From UHGV virus genome UHGV-0135234: a DNA stretch of 36,533 nucleotides; one strand, given 5' to 3'. The stretch comes from a virus. Shown here in pieces: positions 1 to 31,896 of this stretch (position 1 is the stretch's first letter; each line of letters starts with the position of its first letter). The position numbers and the translations under genes were made by a program. The notes below the pieces were generated by a model. That model was not told the origin of the DNA. It made no database searches and saw only the letters and a list, made by a program, of their open reading frames with translations.

Positions 1-49
1 ATGTTTGCAGTTTCAAGGCATTTCCTTAAATCTGCTGGCGATGCCCTGT

Positions 50-700
50 TCATGCTGCACGCTCCCGCCCCTGGTTGTCTGTTGGTGACAGCGGAGCATT
101 GCTGAATGCATTTGTTAATCCGGCAATATCCAACGCGTATCCAGGGTGTAGTTGCACTGCCGGGTCTTCGCACTGATTACCCCAAACATCGAAGCCATGA
201 GACGTCTGGCGGGCGAACAGTTCAATGCGAGAAACATCGCCTAACAATTGCACAAGTTTTTCACGAACAATATCTGGTTTTCTTGAATGCTCAAGCCGCG
301 GTGCGGTAAATGACTGAACGATCCCTGCATTAATGCGCGTAGGTAGTTTTCCCTTTACTGCAAACAGGCAATCTTCACTATTGGCGCGAGTCATGTGTCC
401 CATACCCATAACCAGTTTATCTGGTTGTCGACTACCACATTTTATCCACGTGAAGCCCTTCATGGTCATCAGACGGAATCCCCAGGCTTCAACAACTTTT
501 AGTGCTTCGAGTGGTTGTGTTGGCACCCACCACATGGCCAACAGACAGTTTTCATCGGCCAAATCCCACACAGGAAGGCGGCAGATATCCAGCACACTCA
601 TAACCGGATATTTAAAACCGGCACCGCGATTACCATCTGCGGCTTTGTCCCGGTATACCCAGGGTGGATCTGCATAGATTAGTGTGTATTTCTTAGTCAT
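50..700 (-). CDS. DNA N6-adenine methyltransferase (MT-A70/Dam-like, orphan)
   Basis: ORF 50..712; first ATG at 700 preceded by GGGGTGG SD (712 is GTG). DPPW catalytic motif near N-terminus (YADPPWVY). No adjacent restriction endonuclease gene. Confidence 0.8.
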   Translation of the reverse strand: MTKKYTLIYADPPWVYRDKAADGNRGAGFKYPVMSVLDICRLPVWDLADENCLLAMWWVPTQPLEALKVVEAWGFRLMTMKGFTWIKCGSRQPDKLVMGMGHMTRANSEDCLFAVKGKLPTRINAGIVQSFTAPRLEHSRKPDIVREKLVQLLGDVSRIELFARQTSHGFDVWGNQCEDPAVQLHPGYALDIAGLTNAFSNAPLSPTDNQGRERAA

Positions 701-959
701 AAACCACCCCACAACATCCTATGCCGCTATAGTCGCCACGGCGAAGGCCGTTACCTTTTGTGATACATTGGTCCCTGCGAACCGCGATCCTTGCACGCTC
801 AACATCACCAGAAGCAACATCCATACACTGAAGCCAAAGGTGGGCGGCAATGCGGAACTGCCCTTTTTTCTCTCTTTCAATCGCGCGTTTTTCGATCTCT
901 ATCGCCGCAGGAGTAACGGCAACAACCTTTGAAGGGCTGCGCATTGAAACCTTGTTCAT
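693..959 (-). CDS. hypothetical protein
   Basis: ORF 693..992 (GTG at 992, first ATG at 959); no clear SD; fills the gap between AlpA-like gene and methylase in the same operon. Weak. Confidence 0.3.
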   Translation of the reverse strand: MNKVSMRSPSKVVAVTPAAIEIEKRAIEREKKGQFRIAAHLWLQCMDVASGDVERARIAVRRDQCITKGNGLRRGDYSGIGCCGVVYD

Positions 960-1101
960 GTGATATTTTTCAAGTCGGCTTAACTTTCTCACTTAATCCA
1001 ACCCTATCTGAAAATTAATGCCAGCAGATAAAGCCATGCTGAAACAGAGGCCAGGAATAAGTACCATCCTGACCATTTGCTCCAGTGCCTTAGCAGCGCA
1101 C

Positions 1102-1350
1102 TCATGCAGCGTTGCTCACAGGACGATATACACGTTGCTGAACAGGAGGTTTTTTACCCTGGAACTCTGCCGGGCTTGCTGCCTGACGTTCATCAAGCCA
1201 ACGCTCAACTTCATCACGGTTCCATGCGCAGCGTTTATCGGTGATATACCAGCGTTTAGGAAATTCCCCTGCGCGCTCCATACGGTCGATAGTGCTCCAT
1301 GACAGTGGCACCACCGCCAGGAGTTCCTTCTTACCTAATGCACCTTTCAT
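1102..1350 (-). CDS. AlpA-family phage transcriptional regulator (HTH)
   Basis: 82 aa; KKELLAVVPLSWSTIDRMERAGEFPKRWYITDKRCAWNRDEVERWL matches AlpA-type HTH pattern; GAGAGG SD upstream of ATG 1350. Confidence 0.75.
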   Translation of the reverse strand: MKGALGKKELLAVVPLSWSTIDRMERAGEFPKRWYITDKRCAWNRDEVERWLDERQAASPAEFQGKKPPVQQRVYRPVSNAA

Positions 1351-1399
1351 AAATACCTCTCTTGGTTGCAGTGCGGCGCGCGTGGCGCCGCGGTGGTGG

Positions 1400-2341
1400 T
1401 TACATAGATGTTTCGTTTAATTCTTCCCGACGAACGCTGTAAACGTCGGTGGCTTTTGCCAGCAGTTCGTCATCATCTGAAAGTTTTTGTGCAATGTATT
1501 TGTAAGCCTTATCCAGTTCGGAGACAGTGCTGTAATTCATCGCTGCGCTGGTAAAGGCCATCAGCATTTCTTCTGGATCACGGCTATCCGCTTTACGCGT
1601 TTGCTCATCAGGCTTTTTCACTGGTTTAGCGTTGATCAGACTGTTCATTCCCGCAGCAGTGGTCGTTTGCGGAGTAATGTCTCGCTCAACGCGCGGTGCC
1701 GTTTCCTGTAATTCGTCTGGTGTGTAGACGCCCATGATTACGTCAGGACAGTGCAAGCGAGACCAGCGTTTTGTCGCAAGGTATGCGAGTTGTTGTTTCG
1801 GATCACTGGCCCAAAGTGTGGAGTTTCTTACCTGTGCTTGAGACAGCATTAACTCAAGCACTCGAGGTTGATCCTCGCCCTTCATGGTTGCCCATACGCG
1901 AACACCGCAGCCTTCTTCGTCTTTTAGAGTCCAGCCTGGTGCGATATATGGATTGCCGTTTTTGGATGTTTTCTCAACAAACTTACCGATCACGCGTTCC
2001 CACGGCCCGAACCACTCGTAGTTGATGCGATCTTTTGTTGGCGACATCGTTGAGATAACTGCGTTTACTAATTGGGCTTCATAACCTAGCGTGCCGTTCA
2101 CAACATGGGTTTTCTGAGCCACGGCAAACGGGTTCATTCCCCACTGCGCAGCCTGCATTGCCACGGCCATGCAATCAGCTGGTTTCCCGGCGAGGTGCGC
2201 CGGTACCGTTACGCGGCTTTGCGCCATTACCTCGGCGAATTTCATCAGTTGGTTCAAGCCGTCTGGGCTGAAAATAGTTGCAGCAGTTCCAGCGATTGCT
2301 GTGTCTACTGGTGCGTTGATGTTTACGATGTCGTTGCTCAT
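1400..2341 (-). CDS. recT: RecT-family single-strand annealing recombinase
   Basis: ORF 1400..2368; ATG at 2341 overlaps upstream stop in an ATGA junction. Sequence pattern typical of RecT family. Confidence 0.88.
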   Translation of the reverse strand: MSNDIVNINAPVDTAIAGTAATIFSPDGLNQLMKFAEVMAQSRVTVPAHLAGKPADCMAVAMQAAQWGMNPFAVAQKTHVVNGTLGYEAQLVNAVISTMSPTKDRINYEWFGPWERVIGKFVEKTSKNGNPYIAPGWTLKDEEGCGVRVWATMKGEDQPRVLELMLSQAQVRNSTLWASDPKQQLAYLATKRWSRLHCPDVIMGVYTPDELQETAPRVERDITPQTTTAAGMNSLINAKPVKKPDEQTRKADSRDPEEMLMAFTSAAMNYSTVSELDKAYKYIAQKLSDDDELLAKATDVYSVRREELNETSM

Positions 2342-3159
2342 ATGTACATATCCTGTTTGCGTGCCCACTCATGGCGTTTAATGATTTCCACACCGCCCCA
2401 TTCATCATTGATGCGGCATTCGTGATAGGTATTCAGATCCCGGCGGAACAGAGCGTGCCCGGCATCGACATCCTGCGCATCCAGCTCGAACACGCGTACC
2501 GGATAGCGACCACAATCAATGCTTTCGCTCACGGCAAGAAAGAAAAAACCATGCGGCTGACCAGTAACCCTCATTGCGCCTTCGCGGTACATTGCGTCCT
2601 GCACGTGGTAGCGGAATTCCTCGATGTGGCGTGCAAAACGGTCCATATCTGCAACCTTTTTCACGTCGACGATCACGTTGTGCTCGTTCAGCCATTTGTC
2701 TGGACGAATTCGGCACAACTCACCCGTCTCTTCATCGTTCCAGTACATTGATGCTTCGCAGTAACCAGGTGCTTCCAACATCCAGCGTGCCGCCGGATGA
2801 GCCATTGCGCTATCACGCATCAGCTCCAGTTTCCGCCACTGCTCGGCATCAAGTACCGTAATCCCCATATCCGCCACATCACGAAGAAATGCCTCTTCGT
2901 CAGCTTTACCTTGTTTCGTCCGACGATCGAATTTCGGTGAAACAATGAAGCGTTTGTCGAACTCTCCAGGCTCCAGAAGCAGACAGTGCAATGCGGTTCC
3001 CATATCCAGTGCAGACTTTTTCTCTTCGTCTTCTGGTGCTGCCTGAACCCATTTAAGAAGCGCCGGATTCTTGGCAACCATGTCCAGTTGCGACTTACTC
3101 ACGCCGTCACCGGCGTGGTAGTCTTCGTTGCTGATGTCGAAATAAATTCCCGGTTTCAT
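2338..3159 (-). CDS. RecE-like exonuclease (PD-(D/E)XK, exodeoxyribonuclease VIII C-terminal-type domain)
   Basis: 273 aa, immediately upstream of and translationally coupled to recT; resembles the short RecE nuclease-domain proteins of lambdoid and Rac-like prophages. Confidence 0.75.
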   Translation of the reverse strand: MKPGIYFDISNEDYHAGDGVSKSQLDMVAKNPALLKWVQAAPEDEEKKSALDMGTALHCLLLEPGEFDKRFIVSPKFDRRTKQGKADEEAFLRDVADMGITVLDAEQWRKLELMRDSAMAHPAARWMLEAPGYCEASMYWNDEETGELCRIRPDKWLNEHNVIVDVKKVADMDRFARHIEEFRYHVQDAMYREGAMRVTGQPHGFFFLAVSESIDCGRYPVRVFELDAQDVDAGHALFRRDLNTYHECRINDEWGGVEIIKRHEWARKQDMYI

Positions 3160-3455
3160 GCCGCGTCCCTCTGTCCATCAAGCTGATCCGCCAGATCCCA
3201 GCGGGCGATAATTGCCATTGCCTCTCGCCGATAGGCATCCATCAGTTCTTCGAACTCAGGGCTGTCTTTAGCAGCCTCCAGTACTTCCTGACGAACGCCT
3301 TTGCCTGTTACAACGTCGAAAGTTGAGGACAGTTGATGAAGTCGGATGCTCTCAATCAGTTCAACTTGTCGGTCATATAGCTGTTCTGACAGGCGGTAGT
3401 CCTTGTCGAATGCCAGCATGATTTTTTGAAGATTTTTCTGCTGATTAACGTTCAT
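3156..3455 (-). CDS. hypothetical early protein (racC/gam position)
   Basis: ORF 3156..3470; ATG at 3455 has GGGAGG SD; stop overlaps RecE start (ATGA). No recognisable domain. Confidence 0.5.
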   Translation of the reverse strand: MNVNQQKNLQKIMLAFDKDYRLSEQLYDRQVELIESIRLHQLSSTFDVVTGKGVRQEVLEAAKDSPEFEELMDAYRREAMAIIARWDLADQLDGQRDAA

Positions 3456-3457
3456 TA

Positions 3458-3610
3458 TCAGCCCTCCCATATCTCGTTATCGTTGGCCACATCGCGAGCT
3501 TCTTTGCTGACGAAAGCCCACTTGATGCCTTCCTGTAAGGTGCGGAACTTCCAGCTCATGAATCCGCATGCAGTAACGCAGTACCAACCGTTGATGATTT
3601 TCCACTGCAT
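3458..3610 (-). CDS. small Cys-containing protein, first gene of leftward early operon (kil-like position)
   Basis: 50 aa MQWKIINGWYCVTACGFMSWKFRTLQEGIKWAFVSKEARDVANDNEIWEG; below the 60-aa ORF-track cutoff; GAGGT SD 8 nt upstream; operator 3630..3644 directly upstream. Confidence 0.4.
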   Translation of the reverse strand: MQWKIINGWYCVTACGFMSWKFRTLQEGIKWAFVSKEARDVANDNEIWEG

Positions 3611-3629
3611 AACTTGTTACCTCGGTCTG

Positions 3630-3644
3630 TTACCGTTGAGGTAA
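3630..3644. promoter_or_regulatory. operator palindrome TTACC-N5-GGTAA (OL-proximal)
   Basis: ttaccgttgaggtaa; overlaps predicted -10/+1 of leftward promoter. Confidence 0.6.
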
Positions 3645-3672
3645 TGATTATGCGTATTTGGTTTGATGTCAA
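3644..3672 (-). promoter_or_regulatory. putative leftward early promoter (pL-like)
   Basis: Minus strand -35 TTGACA (3667..3672), 17-bp spacer, -10 AATCAT; flanked by two operator palindromes. Confidence 0.4.
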
Positions 3673-3691
3673 TAGATATGAGTTAAAAAAA

Positions 3692-3706
3692 TTACCCGTT
3701 AGGTAA
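3692..3706. promoter_or_regulatory. operator palindrome TTACC-N5-GGTAA (OL-distal)
   Basis: ttacccgttaggtaa, perfect inverted repeat. Confidence 0.6.
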
Positions 3707-3763: not shown

Positions 3764-4348
3764 TTATTGTTTATTTTTTTCGTTCTGGTTGATGACAAAT
3801 TCAATGTAACTTTCGATCTTTGCCTTCTCTGTTTCAGGTAACAATGCGTAGCGCGAGCGGTCATAGTTGATAGTCGCGGGGTCGTGCGGGTGAATCAGTA
3901 ATTCATATCCGTGACGCCCAAATGCGGATGCAACATTCTCCAGGGTGGAAATGGAAACGCTGACCTCATTGTTTAACAGGCGGCTGATTGTTACCTGGGC
4001 GACGCCGGATGCGCGGTGAAGTTTTCCCTGCGTTGAAAGGTCGCGGCTTTCGCTCATCCAGCGTTCCAGGTTGTGAGCCGCCAGTTGACCAATGTCGCTT
4101 GGTCCGACAGGCTGAAAACCTTCCTGAGAAAGCGAGCGATCGATATCAAGCCAGTTACGGGGTTTATTGGCGGCAGCTTCAATTTTTCGCGCAACCTGGT
4201 CGCCGATAACCTTCTTGCCAAGAGCCCAGCGGTTTACCAGATTTGCCTGAGTTCCAAGTTTTTCAGCCATCCGCGTCTGAACACCATTGAATTCACGGTC
4301 GATCAAGTCGTTGAGATTTTGCCTGCGGACGTCCTGGATACTTTTCAT
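3764..4348 (-). CDS. phage immunity repressor (CI-like, two HTH domains, no S24 peptidase domain)
   Basis: 194 aa; N-terminal HTH (QTRMAEKLGTQANLVNRWALGKK) and second HTH (RASGVAQVTISRLLNNEVSVSISTLENVA); no LexA-like autocleavage domain; divergent from Cro-like gene with operators between. Confidence 0.75.
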   Translation of the reverse strand: MKSIQDVRRQNLNDLIDREFNGVQTRMAEKLGTQANLVNRWALGKKVIGDQVARKIEAAANKPRNWLDIDRSLSQEGFQPVGPSDIGQLAAHNLERWMSESRDLSTQGKLHRASGVAQVTISRLLNNEVSVSISTLENVASAFGRHGYELLIHPHDPATINYDRSRYALLPETEKAKIESYIEFVINQNEKNKQ

Positions 4349-4403: not shown

Positions 4404-4418
4404 TTACCCAACAGGTAA
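4404..4418. promoter_or_regulatory. operator palindrome TTACC-N5-GGTAA (OR region)
   Basis: ttacccaacaggtaa in divergent repressor/cro intergenic region. Confidence 0.6.
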
Positions 4419-6734: not shown

Positions 6735-6749
6735 TTACCTGTTAGGTAA
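6735..6749. promoter_or_regulatory. operator palindrome TTACC-N5-GGTAA
   Basis: ttacctgttaggtaa upstream of internal promoter. Confidence 0.55.
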
Positions 6750-6768: not shown

Positions 6769-6797
6769 TTGATTTCGTGTCTTATGTGGTTTTTAAT
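6769..6797 (+). promoter_or_regulatory. putative internal promoter for nin-like operon
   Basis: -35 TTGATT (6769..6774), 17-bp spacer, -10 TTTAAT (6792..6797), directly followed by operator. Confidence 0.4.
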
Positions 6798-6811
6798 TAC
6801 CTCAGAGGTAA
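6797..6811. promoter_or_regulatory. operator palindrome TTACC-N5-GGTAA overlapping SD of downstream gene
   Basis: ttacctcagaggtaa; ends 4 nt before ATG 6815. Confidence 0.55.
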
Positions 6812-9845: not shown

Positions 9846-9860
9846 TTACCACAACGGTAA
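9846..9860. promoter_or_regulatory. operator palindrome TTACC-N5-GGTAA upstream of terS
   Basis: ttaccacaacggtaa; preceded by TACTAT -10-like hexamer; direct repeat CTATTACCAC at 9843 and 9861. Confidence 0.55.
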
Positions 9861-9877
9861 CTATTACCACGGTGGTT

Positions 9878-10474
9878 ATGATGCCTGCTGAACCTAAAAC
9901 CTATAAACGCAAATCAACGCAATTTAAGCCGCTCACAGCAATGCAGGAGGCTTATTGCCAGTCATACATCAAAACGCCTGAAAACCAGACTCAGGCAGCG
10001 ATTAACGCAGGATTCTCCCCAAATACAGCGGCAGTTAAAGCCAGTGTCATGATGCGCGATGAACGCATTCAAAAACGGATTGCCGAGTTGATGGAGGAGC
10101 GCAACAAACGAATGCGCGTCAGTGCTGATTACGTTCTCATGCGCCTGGTGGAGATCGACCAGATGGACGTGATCGACATCCTCAACGACGATGGTAGCCT
10201 TAAGCCAATCCGCGAGTGGCCGAAAATCTGGCGCACTACGCTTAGTGGCTTTGATCTGTCATCGACCATCATGAACATGAACGAGGATTCGATAGAGACA
10301 ATCCTCAAAAAAATTAAATGGCCTGACAAGGTGAAGAACCTCGAACTGATTGGTAAGCACGTCGACGTCAACGCATTCAAAGAACGCCTGGATGTTAATG
10401 TGAATGTGACAATTGCTGATCGCATAGCGGCAGCCAGGAAGAGACTGAAAGAACGTCAGGATGGCAATCAGTGA
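9878..10474 (+). CDS. terminase small subunit
   Basis: ORF 9800..10474; ATG at 9878 or 9881 (upstream part contains the terminator); pattern resembles small-terminase family (QEAYCQSYIKTPENQTQAAINAGFSPNTAAVKASVMMRDERIQKRI). Confidence 0.75.
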   Translation: MMPAEPKTYKRKSTQFKPLTAMQEAYCQSYIKTPENQTQAAINAGFSPNTAAVKASVMMRDERIQKRIAELMEERNKRMRVSADYVLMRLVEIDQMDVIDILNDDGSLKPIREWPKIWRTTLSGFDLSSTIMNMNEDSIETILKKIKWPDKVKNLELIGKHVDVNAFKERLDVNVNVTIADRIAAARKRLKERQDGNQ

Positions 10475-12615: not shown

Positions 12616-12692
12616 TGGCGTGGCATGCAGGATTCGAACCTGCGACCAACCGCTTAGAAGGCGGTTGCTCTGTCCAACTGAGCTAATGCCAC
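12616..12692 (-). tRNA. tRNA-Arg (anticodon UCU)
   Basis: 77 nt GTGGCATTAGCTCAGTTGGACAGAGCAACCGCCTTCTAAGCGGTTGGTCGCAGGTTCGAATCCTGCATGCCACGCCA; 7-bp acceptor stem, D-arm GCTC/GAGC, anticodon loop CTTCTAA, T-loop TTCGAAT, encoded CCA. Confidence 0.9.
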
Positions 12693-13021: not shown

Positions 13022-13036
13022 TTACCTGAAAGGTAA
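13022..13036. promoter_or_regulatory. operator palindrome TTACC-N5-GGTAA upstream of head operon
   Basis: ttacctgaaaggtaa. Confidence 0.55.
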
Positions 13037-30461: not shown

Positions 30462-30476
30462 TTACCTTTAAGGTAA
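30462..30476. promoter_or_regulatory. operator palindrome TTACC-N5-GGTAA between promoter and gene A
   Basis: ttacctttaaggtaa immediately upstream of SD. Confidence 0.55.
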
Positions 30477-30548: not shown

Positions 30549-31235
30549 TCAGAAGAACCCAGCCTTGTCGTTGATGTACTCCGCGTGGGTCTGGATATCA
30601 CGCAGGCATTTGCTCACACCAACAATGTAGCAGAACATGGTGGTCAGCTCCGCCGCCGCGCCCGATACGTCGTGCCCGTCTTCCTGTAACTGGTTCAGCA
30701 GATTCATCAGCAGTGAGTTCTCCGTCAGGCCGAGAACACCAGACGGAGAATGAATCAGGCTGCGGTAGCCGGGCTTCAGTGGGGCACTGTAGGTTTTGTT
30801 CTCTATCTTCATTGCCTGCATCACTGCTGATGCTGTGGCGTTGGCTACCTGGTCGGCAACTATCTTTATGCGTTCTTCCTGCGGGAGCGAGTTTTTAATG
30901 TAACTTCCGGTGCGGCGGATCTGAGGAAGAACCTCACCTGTAACCCATTTACGAAAGCGGTAGGGGATAGTGCCTGGTGTCACTGCGTCGCGGCAGCGGA
31001 GGATCAGTGTGTAGAGGCCTGACTCGTTGATAATATTGGTTTCACCTTGACGGCCTAAGTTAAATTTAGCCCTTTCATCATCATCAAGAGATTTTATTGA
31101 CATAGTGGGGTTTGTCAGTTGAAGAGCTTTAATAACGTCTTTGGCAACAAACCAAGGATTTCCATCAATAACAATGGCTCGAATGGTGGCTTCTGATTCA
31201 AAATGAAAAACAGATGGGGTTACGTTAGCAGTCAT
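30549..31235 (-). CDS. Bro-N domain antirepressor-like protein
   Basis: ORF 30549..31388; ATG at 31235 (MTANVTPSVFHFESEATIRAIVIDGNPWFVAKDVIKALQL... classic Bro-N N-terminus); AAGGTGA SD; upstream extension is a structured leader. Confidence 0.8.
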   Translation of the reverse strand: MTANVTPSVFHFESEATIRAIVIDGNPWFVAKDVIKALQLTNPTMSIKSLDDDERAKFNLGRQGETNIINESGLYTLILRCRDAVTPGTIPYRFRKWVTGEVLPQIRRTGSYIKNSLPQEERIKIVADQVANATASAVMQAMKIENKTYSAPLKPGYRSLIHSPSGVLGLTENSLLMNLLNQLQEDGHDVSGAAAELTTMFCYIVGVSKCLRDIQTHAEYINDKAGFF

Positions 31236-31388
31236 AGTGATCACCTTTGTAGTTAGGTTAATCACCACTACCGACGCCAATCGGTTGGTGGTGAACTGTG
31301 CAGGGTTGGCGTAACCGGCTACAAAGGACCCGGCGCACCTTTCGGTGCCCCCACACAGCCCACCATAGAATAGGTGCGCTTTACACAT

Positions 31389-31408
31389 AAAAAAACCGCT
31401 TATGCGGC
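31389..31408 (-). terminator. intrinsic terminator/attenuator in Bro leader
   Basis: Minus strand gccgc-ataa-gcggu followed by seven U. Confidence 0.45.
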
Positions 31409-31501
31409 ATATGTGCCTCTGTAGTAACCCGGGACGCCAATCCCGGCACTGGATTTTGCCAGTGCCCGATTACTATGGCACAAGAGGAGTGCGATGTAAA
31501 T

Positions 31502-31516
31502 TTACCGAAAAGGTAA
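31502..31516. promoter_or_regulatory. operator palindrome TTACC-N5-GGTAA
   Basis: ttaccgaaaaggtaa directly downstream of putative Bro promoter. Confidence 0.55.
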
Positions 31517-31881: not shown

Positions 31882-31896
31882 TTACCCGAAAGGTAA
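31882..31896. promoter_or_regulatory. operator palindrome TTACC-N5-GGTAA
   Basis: ttacccgaaaggtaa between 85-aa gene and divergent tailspike. Confidence 0.55.

Follow-up and report, generated by a model that had tools for sequence, protein, structure and literature searches.

A 50-residue gene behind an operator-flanked promoter

The window analyzed here is the whole 36,533-nucleotide stretch of the virus genome UHGV-0135234. On its minus strand, positions 3458–3610 hold an open reading frame of 50 amino acids, MQWKIINGWYCVTACGFMSWKFRTLQEGIKWAFVSKEARDVANDNEIWEG, with an ATG at 3610–3608 and a TGA at 3460–3458. The product is 100% identical to phiV10 p39 and to WP_001198620.1, and it is the orthologue of epsilon15 gp37, the name used below. 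A Shine–Dalgarno sequence, GAGGT (3623–3619, minus strand), lies 8 nt 5' of the ATG, and a GAGG-type Shine–Dalgarno sequence at a distance of 6–9 nt is retained across the aligned relatives. The first-pass annotation had described a 50-residue frame preceded by GAGGT, and both elements are present as claimed.

Farther upstream on the same strand is a putative early-left (pL-like) promoter (3672–3644), assigned from its consensus match and its conserved −35 box. It consists of TTGACA (3672–3667) and AATCAT (3649–3644) separated by a 17-nt spacer, matches at 10 of 12 positions, and is the sole promoter-like site on either strand of window positions 1–3700. The sequence CTATTGACA is kept in 8 of the 10 aligned loci, and the −35 box is retained in the same proportion. 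The promoter is flanked by two copies of a repressor operator. The proximal copy, TTACCGTTGAGGTAA (3630–3644), abuts the −10 box and spans the likely transcription start, while the distal copy, TTACCCGTTAGGTAA (3692–3706), is positioned upstream of the −35 box, 62 bp from the proximal operator. In the upstream alignment of relatives, the −35 box, proximal operator, Shine–Dalgarno sequence, and ATG are all conserved, with the TTACC and GGTAA halves of the operator invariant. The window contains 12 copies of the TTACC-N5-GGTAA motif where 0.67 would be expected, a count reached by none of 100 shuffles, and the epsilon15 record marks the equivalent sites as repressor-binding. Two further proposals made from the letters alone are borne out: an operator-controlled promoter lies directly upstream of the frame, and gp37 is the first cistron of a leftward early operon. 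The promoter is of the sigma-70 type, TTGACA-17-AATCAT between two operator copies.

The gene on the other side of the promoter (3764–4348, minus strand) encodes a 194-residue prophage repressor with two helix-turn-helix domains, of the SPC32H Rep/epsilon15 gp38 type. An intrinsic terminator of the repressor transcript (3743–3724, minus strand) stands between this gene and the early-left promoter, and an equivalent terminator is annotated in phiV10. Operator copies are also found at 4404 and 4452, within the divergent repressor/cro intergenic region.

Additional copies are scattered across the prophage, at 6735–6749, 6797–6811, 9846–9860, 9864–9878, 13022–13036, 30462–30476, 31502–31516, and 31882–31896. 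The pair at 6735 and 6797 has a 62-bp spacing, identical to that of the pL pair. The occurrence of operators this far from the immunity region suggests that Rep may control several further promoters. Those at 31502 and 31882 lie near two minus-strand Rfam matches, a C4 antisense RNA and an isrK sRNA (31284–31370 and 31389–31465), located immediately upstream of a Bro-N/antirepressor-like frame (30549–31388, minus strand). The arrangement of these RNAs and this frame points to putative antirepressor control resembling P1 ImmI or Gifsy isrK. The prophage also carries a tRNA-Arg gene (anticodon tct) at 12616–12692 on the minus strand.

A widespread protein catalogued as hypothetical

Residues 1–50 of the frame match all 50 positions of the phrog_898 profile (E = 1.9e-38), and each of the 32 sequences in our gp37 family alignment also matches this profile. 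The identical orthologue is found in phiV10 (p39, YP_512294.1), TL-2011b, vB_EcoP_ZX5, and other Uetakeviruses. Epsilon15 gp37 (NP_848245.1) is 78% identical over the full length and 79% identical in a tblastn local alignment. The label is "hypothetical protein" everywhere, including phiV10 p39, epsilon15 gp37, and WP_001198620.1, and the exact protein sequence recurs on at least 1000 contigs, each time as hypothetical. Calling by PGAP is uneven, with the CDS left out in some E. coli genomes. No model in Pfam, NCBIfam, or PADLOC matches the frame, and PHROGs yields only the function-less phrog_898. In the literature library searched, no paper mentions the gp37 accessions, PHROG 898, or the peptide sequence, and the paper on vB_EcoP_ZX5 does not discuss the frame. 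The tryptic peptides expected from gp37 include IINGWYCVTACGFMSWK and DVANDNEIWEG. The first-pass annotation had called the frame unannotated, which reflects only the ORF-length threshold under which it worked; phiV10, epsilon15, RefSeq, and PHROGs already list the protein as hypothetical. The gene is a conserved small early gene of epsilon15/phiV10-type prophages, already catalogued and ordinary in kind.

Of 5426 complete E. coli genomes, 559 carry a chromosomal prophage that matches the region at 98–99.5% identity. Homologues of gp37 form 63 clusters in a collection of 5.8 billion proteins and 19 in a set of 1.84 billion cluster representatives. Where a cluster carries an organism name, it is always one of the Enterobacterales, with Escherichia, Salmonella, Klebsiella, Enterobacter, Hafnia, Serratia, Raoultella, Kluyvera, and Scandinavium represented. 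A homologue is also present in 16 plasmid records. We rejected these plasmid copies as a distinct context, as they represent entire Uetakevirus prophages inserted into plasmids. In one case, Klebsiella pneumoniae plasmid pKPN-498 (NZ_CP008829.1; L029 in our set), a whole Uetakevirus-like prophage has been inserted. The plasmid-borne prophage retains integrase, immunity region, gp37, gp36, Exo, RecT, and replication genes, and the carriers are large conjugative IncF plasmids of Klebsiella.

Selection on the reading frame

In an ungapped alignment of eight phage loci, variable sites within the first 25 codons are distributed 5/2/11 over the three codon positions. Nei–Gojobori dN/dS is 0.03–0.2 for most of the 15 pairs drawn from six of these eight loci, and pS among the pairs is 0.4–0.7, near saturation at synonymous sites, such that the amino acids have been conserved through saturated synonymous change. 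Since the antisense frame shares wobble positions with the sense frame, all six frames were scored. Across six phages (pS ~0.5), pN/pS is lowest in the sense frame, at 0.26, compared with 0.44 in the antisense frame, which is open in close relatives but is broken by stops in three distant homologues (L011, L014, and L015). In the record of Enterobacter phage Tyrion (NC_031077), this antisense ORF of 70–72 residues (BI095_gp39, L007 2905–3117) is annotated in place of the gp37 orthologue. As a true gene, the antisense ORF was ruled out by its higher pN/pS and by the stops in distant homologues.

An RNA element was likewise ruled out, as Rfam returned no match in the gp37 region and the folding energy of the mRNA is ordinary (z = −0.78). 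The Shine–Dalgarno sequence of the next gene, GGGAGGG (3462–3468), sits within the 3' end of gp37, an arrangement that would also suit a translated leader serving gp36. A mere leader would not be expected to retain a 50-residue sequence and a confidently predicted fold. Given the low dN/dS, the conserved start, Shine–Dalgarno sequence, promoter, and operator, and the conserved synteny described below, gp37 is a real gene, and by these comparative measures it is protein-coding and under strong purifying selection.

The early-left operon

The genomic context of gp37 was compared across eight phage records, some ten prophage contigs with identities as low as 36–42%, and one Klebsiella plasmid. 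The gene order is constant: repressor, operators with promoter, gp37, a variable slot, exonuclease, RecT, and an AlpA-type excisionase. It holds down to 36–42% identity, in Serratia, Hafnia, and others. Conservation in related prophages had been suggested as a check on the frame, and the synteny extends to about 20 phages and prophages of the Enterobacterales. In two Serratia-type loci (L012 and L015), one additional small ORF separates the repressor from the gp37 homologue; gp37 is therefore usually, but not always, the first cistron. The inserted small genes (L012 4713–4925; L015 4211–4477 and 4737–4919) include a 60–70-residue ORF and, in L015, a DNA_pol3_theta (HOT-like) gene.

In the window, the variable slot is occupied by a gp36-family gene (3156–3455, minus strand; 99 residues, PHROG 856), the next cistron after gp37. 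Its ATG lies 2 nt past the gp37 stop (TGAtaATG), and in relatives the two genes overlap by 4–8 nt. Pfam gave no match to gp36. The same slot in relatives holds PF06064 Gam (L020 3819–4106) or PF28165 GamL (L024 4240–4524), and comparison of the gp36 family with the Gam group of relatives by hhalign returned a probability of 74% (E = 2.8e-5). On this profile evidence, gp36 is probably a distant Gam-like host-nuclease inhibitor. Downstream in the same operon are a PD-(D/E)XK (DUF3799) recombination exonuclease (2338–3159, minus strand) and a RecT-family single-strand annealing protein (1400–2341, minus strand). The presence of Gam or GamL in the equivalent slot, together with the hhalign result, leads us to describe the operon as a small protein, a probable Gam-like protein, Exo, and RecT. 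In L014, gp37 is joined directly to a 550-residue RecE-like protein, with no gp36 between them.

The Exo/RecT pair of epsilon15 (L003 3454–5385) is unrelated to that of the window (1400–3159), with 16–25% identity. The genes surrounding the exchanged pair in epsilon15, namely gp37, the cro-like gene, and AlpA, are conserved, a clear module swap within the early-left operon.

Protein features and predicted fold

Residues 1–25 of gp37 are near-invariant in phages of E. coli, Salmonella, Klebsiella, and Enterobacter, and the C-terminal third is variable. The first-pass annotation had described the product as Cys-containing, which is accurate for the window protein, whose only cysteines are C11 and C15, but does not extend to the family: distant members have 0–3 Cys, with L/Y/F/H/I and S/G at the two positions. 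No conserved set of Cys/His ligands was found across the family, and given these substitutions the family has no shared metal or disulfide site. The highest Kyte–Doolittle mean over 19 residues ranges from 0.1 to 1.45 across the family, and a small membrane protein was ruled out for want of a hydrophobic segment of ~19 residues. The pI varies from 4.5 to 10.6, with 3–8 Arg plus Lys residues. Variable pI, few basic residues, and low hydropathy favor a protein binder over a nucleic-acid-binding or membrane protein.

AlphaFold2, supplied with the 32-sequence alignment, predicted strands at residues 2–6, 9–14, and 18–22 followed by a helix at 25–48 (pLDDT 78.9). The prediction is alignment-dependent, as 15 and 32 sequences give different models; the 15-sequence alignment yielded a lone helix with a pLDDT of 56, which was discarded as low-confidence. 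The β3-α model agrees with the conserved NG and xG turns. The protein is accordingly modeled as a soluble mini-domain of ~50 residues, in which a three-stranded antiparallel sheet (2–22) is predicted to pack on the helix (25–48).

A Foldseek search with this model gave nothing significant, and a PDB sequence search with the family profile returned only chance matches (E ~1). Generic β3-α domains, namely AP2/ERF, the integrase N-terminal domain, the HicB N-domain, UPF0339/DUF1508, and T7 Gp1.2, share 2–14% identity with gp37, at scores that are noise-level for a 50-residue motif. The variable net charge of the gp37 family also makes a DNA-binding role like that of AP2-type domains less likely.

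Comparison with N, Kil, and other early-left proteins

The first-pass annotation had placed the gene at the position of N or kil in lambdoid and Rac-like prophages. The kil-like location beside recombination genes stands, while both an N-type role and homology to Kil are rejected. With regard to N, gp37 resembles lambda N and P22 gp24 in being the first gene after pL/OL, with no sequence similarity between them. An N-type antiterminator was rejected on several grounds, as gp37 has no arginine-rich motif and is not strongly basic (lambda N and P22 gp24 have pI values of 11.0 and 10.2), the leader is not nut-like, and no intrinsic terminators were detected downstream. The ~27-nt leader is filled by the operator and the Shine–Dalgarno sequence, which leaves no room for a nut site, and the ordinary folding energy of the mRNA gives no sign of a hairpin. 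A simple scan, with rho-dependent sites outside its reach, detected no terminator-like sites on the operon (minus) strand of window positions 1–3700.

For the remaining early-left proteins, the gp37 family profile was searched (hmmsearch) against 28 small early-left proteins of lambda, P22, and Rac. Scores were at most 1.6 bits for lambda Kil, P22 Kil, and Rac KilR, with P22 Kil and KilR at or below 0 bits, and also at most 1.6 bits for CIII, Ral, Gam, Arf, Abc1/2, YdaE, YdaF, and YdaG. Two likenesses noted by eye were discarded. That to P22 Kil (an NG hairpin and an F..L.EA motif) received an hhalign probability of 0.45%, and that to Rac YdaF (DUF1391) received 0.66%. The latter protein and Qin YdfA (DUF1391, ~51 residues) are likewise ~50-residue products among the first post-repressor genes, with a superficial "F-x-T...W" after an (N/D)G hairpin. 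No gp37 family member matched PF07151 at E values up to 10.

The 47-residue lambda Kil is a ZipA-dependent inhibitor of FtsZ (PMC3961180, PMC11762379), the core of which is predicted to be a helix-turn-helix (PMC11762379). A lambda-Kil-type fold was rejected for gp37, for which the model is β3-α. Lambda Kil and gp37 are alike in being small early-left peptides encoded directly ahead of gam (for gp37, a probable gam-like gene) and the recombination genes, and gp37, like lambda Kil, would be repressed in the lysogen. They differ in that lambda kil lies several genes from pL and is N-dependent, whereas gp37 is the first cistron. In lambda, kil is just upstream of gam-bet-exo, and in P22 it is just upstream of arf-erf. 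P22 Kil (62 residues) and Rac KilR (73 residues; PMC12482147) are, like gp37, small early-left prophage proteins near recombination genes, and profile similarity to gp37 is absent. What gp37 keeps is a positional analogy to kil, as a small repressed early-left gene beside gam-like and recombination genes. It belongs to the broad class of small early-left proteins.

Candidate partners and function

Comparison of gp37 with its neighbors bears on the nature of its partner. In a comparison of eight loci, the N-terminal 25 residues of gp37 are 88–96% identical between phages in which Rep is 43–78% and gp36 44–55% identical. That the N-terminus stays steady while Rep, gp36, and Exo/RecT vary argues against a co-evolving partner among Rep, Exo, and RecT and favors a conserved host target. 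In distant prophages, gp37 diverges faster than Exo, which weakens this argument. The full-length gp37 type also co-segregates with the gp36 type, with three types of each in a small sample. Gp36 may therefore be a phage partner contacted through the C-terminal helix, or the co-segregation may reflect simple linkage.

The reading we prefer, tentatively and at somewhat less than even probability, is that gp37 is silent in the lysogen, is made at once upon derepression or infection, and binds a conserved host protein. In the lysogen, Rep bound at both promoter-flanking operators would keep gp37 silent. Upon removal of Rep, or upon infection, gp37 would be among the earliest proteins produced, and it would bind its host protein stoichiometrically through the aromatic-rich sheet. 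It could thereby act as a host-takeover factor or one that modulates host nucleases or division, in the functional class of lambda Kil, Gam, and CIII while non-homologous to all of them. Inhibition of cell division specifically is not claimed.

A different role, in which gp37 is an accessory of the recombination module, such as a P22 Arf-like protein or a Gam cofactor that modulates RecBCD/SbcCD or loads the annealing protein, seems unlikely to us. It would account for the invariable location of gp37 upstream of Exo–RecT and its tight coupling to the next cistron, for the direct coupling to the RecE-like protein of L014, and for the co-segregation of the C-terminal variant with the gp36 type; P22 Arf is itself the product of a 47-residue gene in an analogous slot. 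Weighing against it, gp37 is almost unchanged despite the unrelated Exo/RecT pair of epsilon15, and similarity to Arf, Abc1, Abc2, and Gam is absent. Because gp37 is linked as tightly to the immunity region, adjacency does not discriminate.

We regard it as improbable that gp37 is Kil-like in function without being homologous, a small peptide that would stop the host from dividing by acting on FtsZ or the divisome during lytic growth. At 50 residues, it is of suitable size alongside lambda Kil (47) and P22 Kil (62), and its location, followed directly by a probable Gam-like gene, Exo, and RecT, recalls lambda and P22 kil. The known Kil proteins differ in size and share no detected similarity with the gp37 profile; the absence of homology is therefore not disqualifying for a Kil function. 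The failure of sequence and profile comparisons to link gp37 with lambda Kil, P22 Kil, or KilR nevertheless counts against this role, as does the contrast between the predicted β3-α fold and the helix-turn-helix predicted for lambda Kil. Position is weak evidence, because the same slots are filled in other phages by CIII, Ral, Arf, YdaG, and YdaF.

Similarly low odds attach to gp37 as a modulator of lysis–lysogeny or of host defense, whether a CIII-like protease inhibitor, an inactivator of Rep that provides positive feedback, or an inhibitor of a defense system. The first protein made after derepression would be well timed for commitment or counter-defense, and small early-left proteins such as CIII and Ral are encoded at similar places in lambda and P22. 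Yet no similarity to CIII or Ral was detected, PADLOC returned no match, and Rep is much less conserved than the N-terminal sheet of gp37, a disparity that speaks against its being a co-evolving target. In addition, these phages already possess a separate antirepressor locus (PMC9782041).

The least probable reading by far, that the conserved stretch is an overlapping DNA or RNA signal, the complement of the antisense gene annotated in Tyrion, or a translated leader for gp36 only, is already largely refuted by the dN/dS and six-frame analysis.

Implications for Uetakevirus biology

Returning to gp37 as a binder of a conserved host protein, a broader proposal would be that PHROG 898 constitutes an unrecognized class of β3-α host-takeover proteins of ~50 residues. 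As the very first Uetakevirus product after derepression, such a protein would inhibit some conserved piece of host machinery, for example the divisome, RecBCD/SbcCD, or a protease, and its mechanism would have no relation to those of Kil, Gam, and CIII. We consider this proposal less likely than not.

Taken at face value, the result is modest and will be unsurprising to a specialist: the gene is real, already catalogued, and a homologue of neither N nor Kil. Two annotation problems are corrected by it, the inconsistent PGAP calls and the choice of the wrong strand in phage Tyrion. Roughly a tenth of complete E. coli genomes harbor the prophage region, with kin in Salmonella, Klebsiella, Enterobacter, Serratia, and Hafnia. 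If gp37 does inhibit a conserved host process, it would represent a new scaffold for small-protein inhibitors and would offer a handle on Uetakevirus induction.
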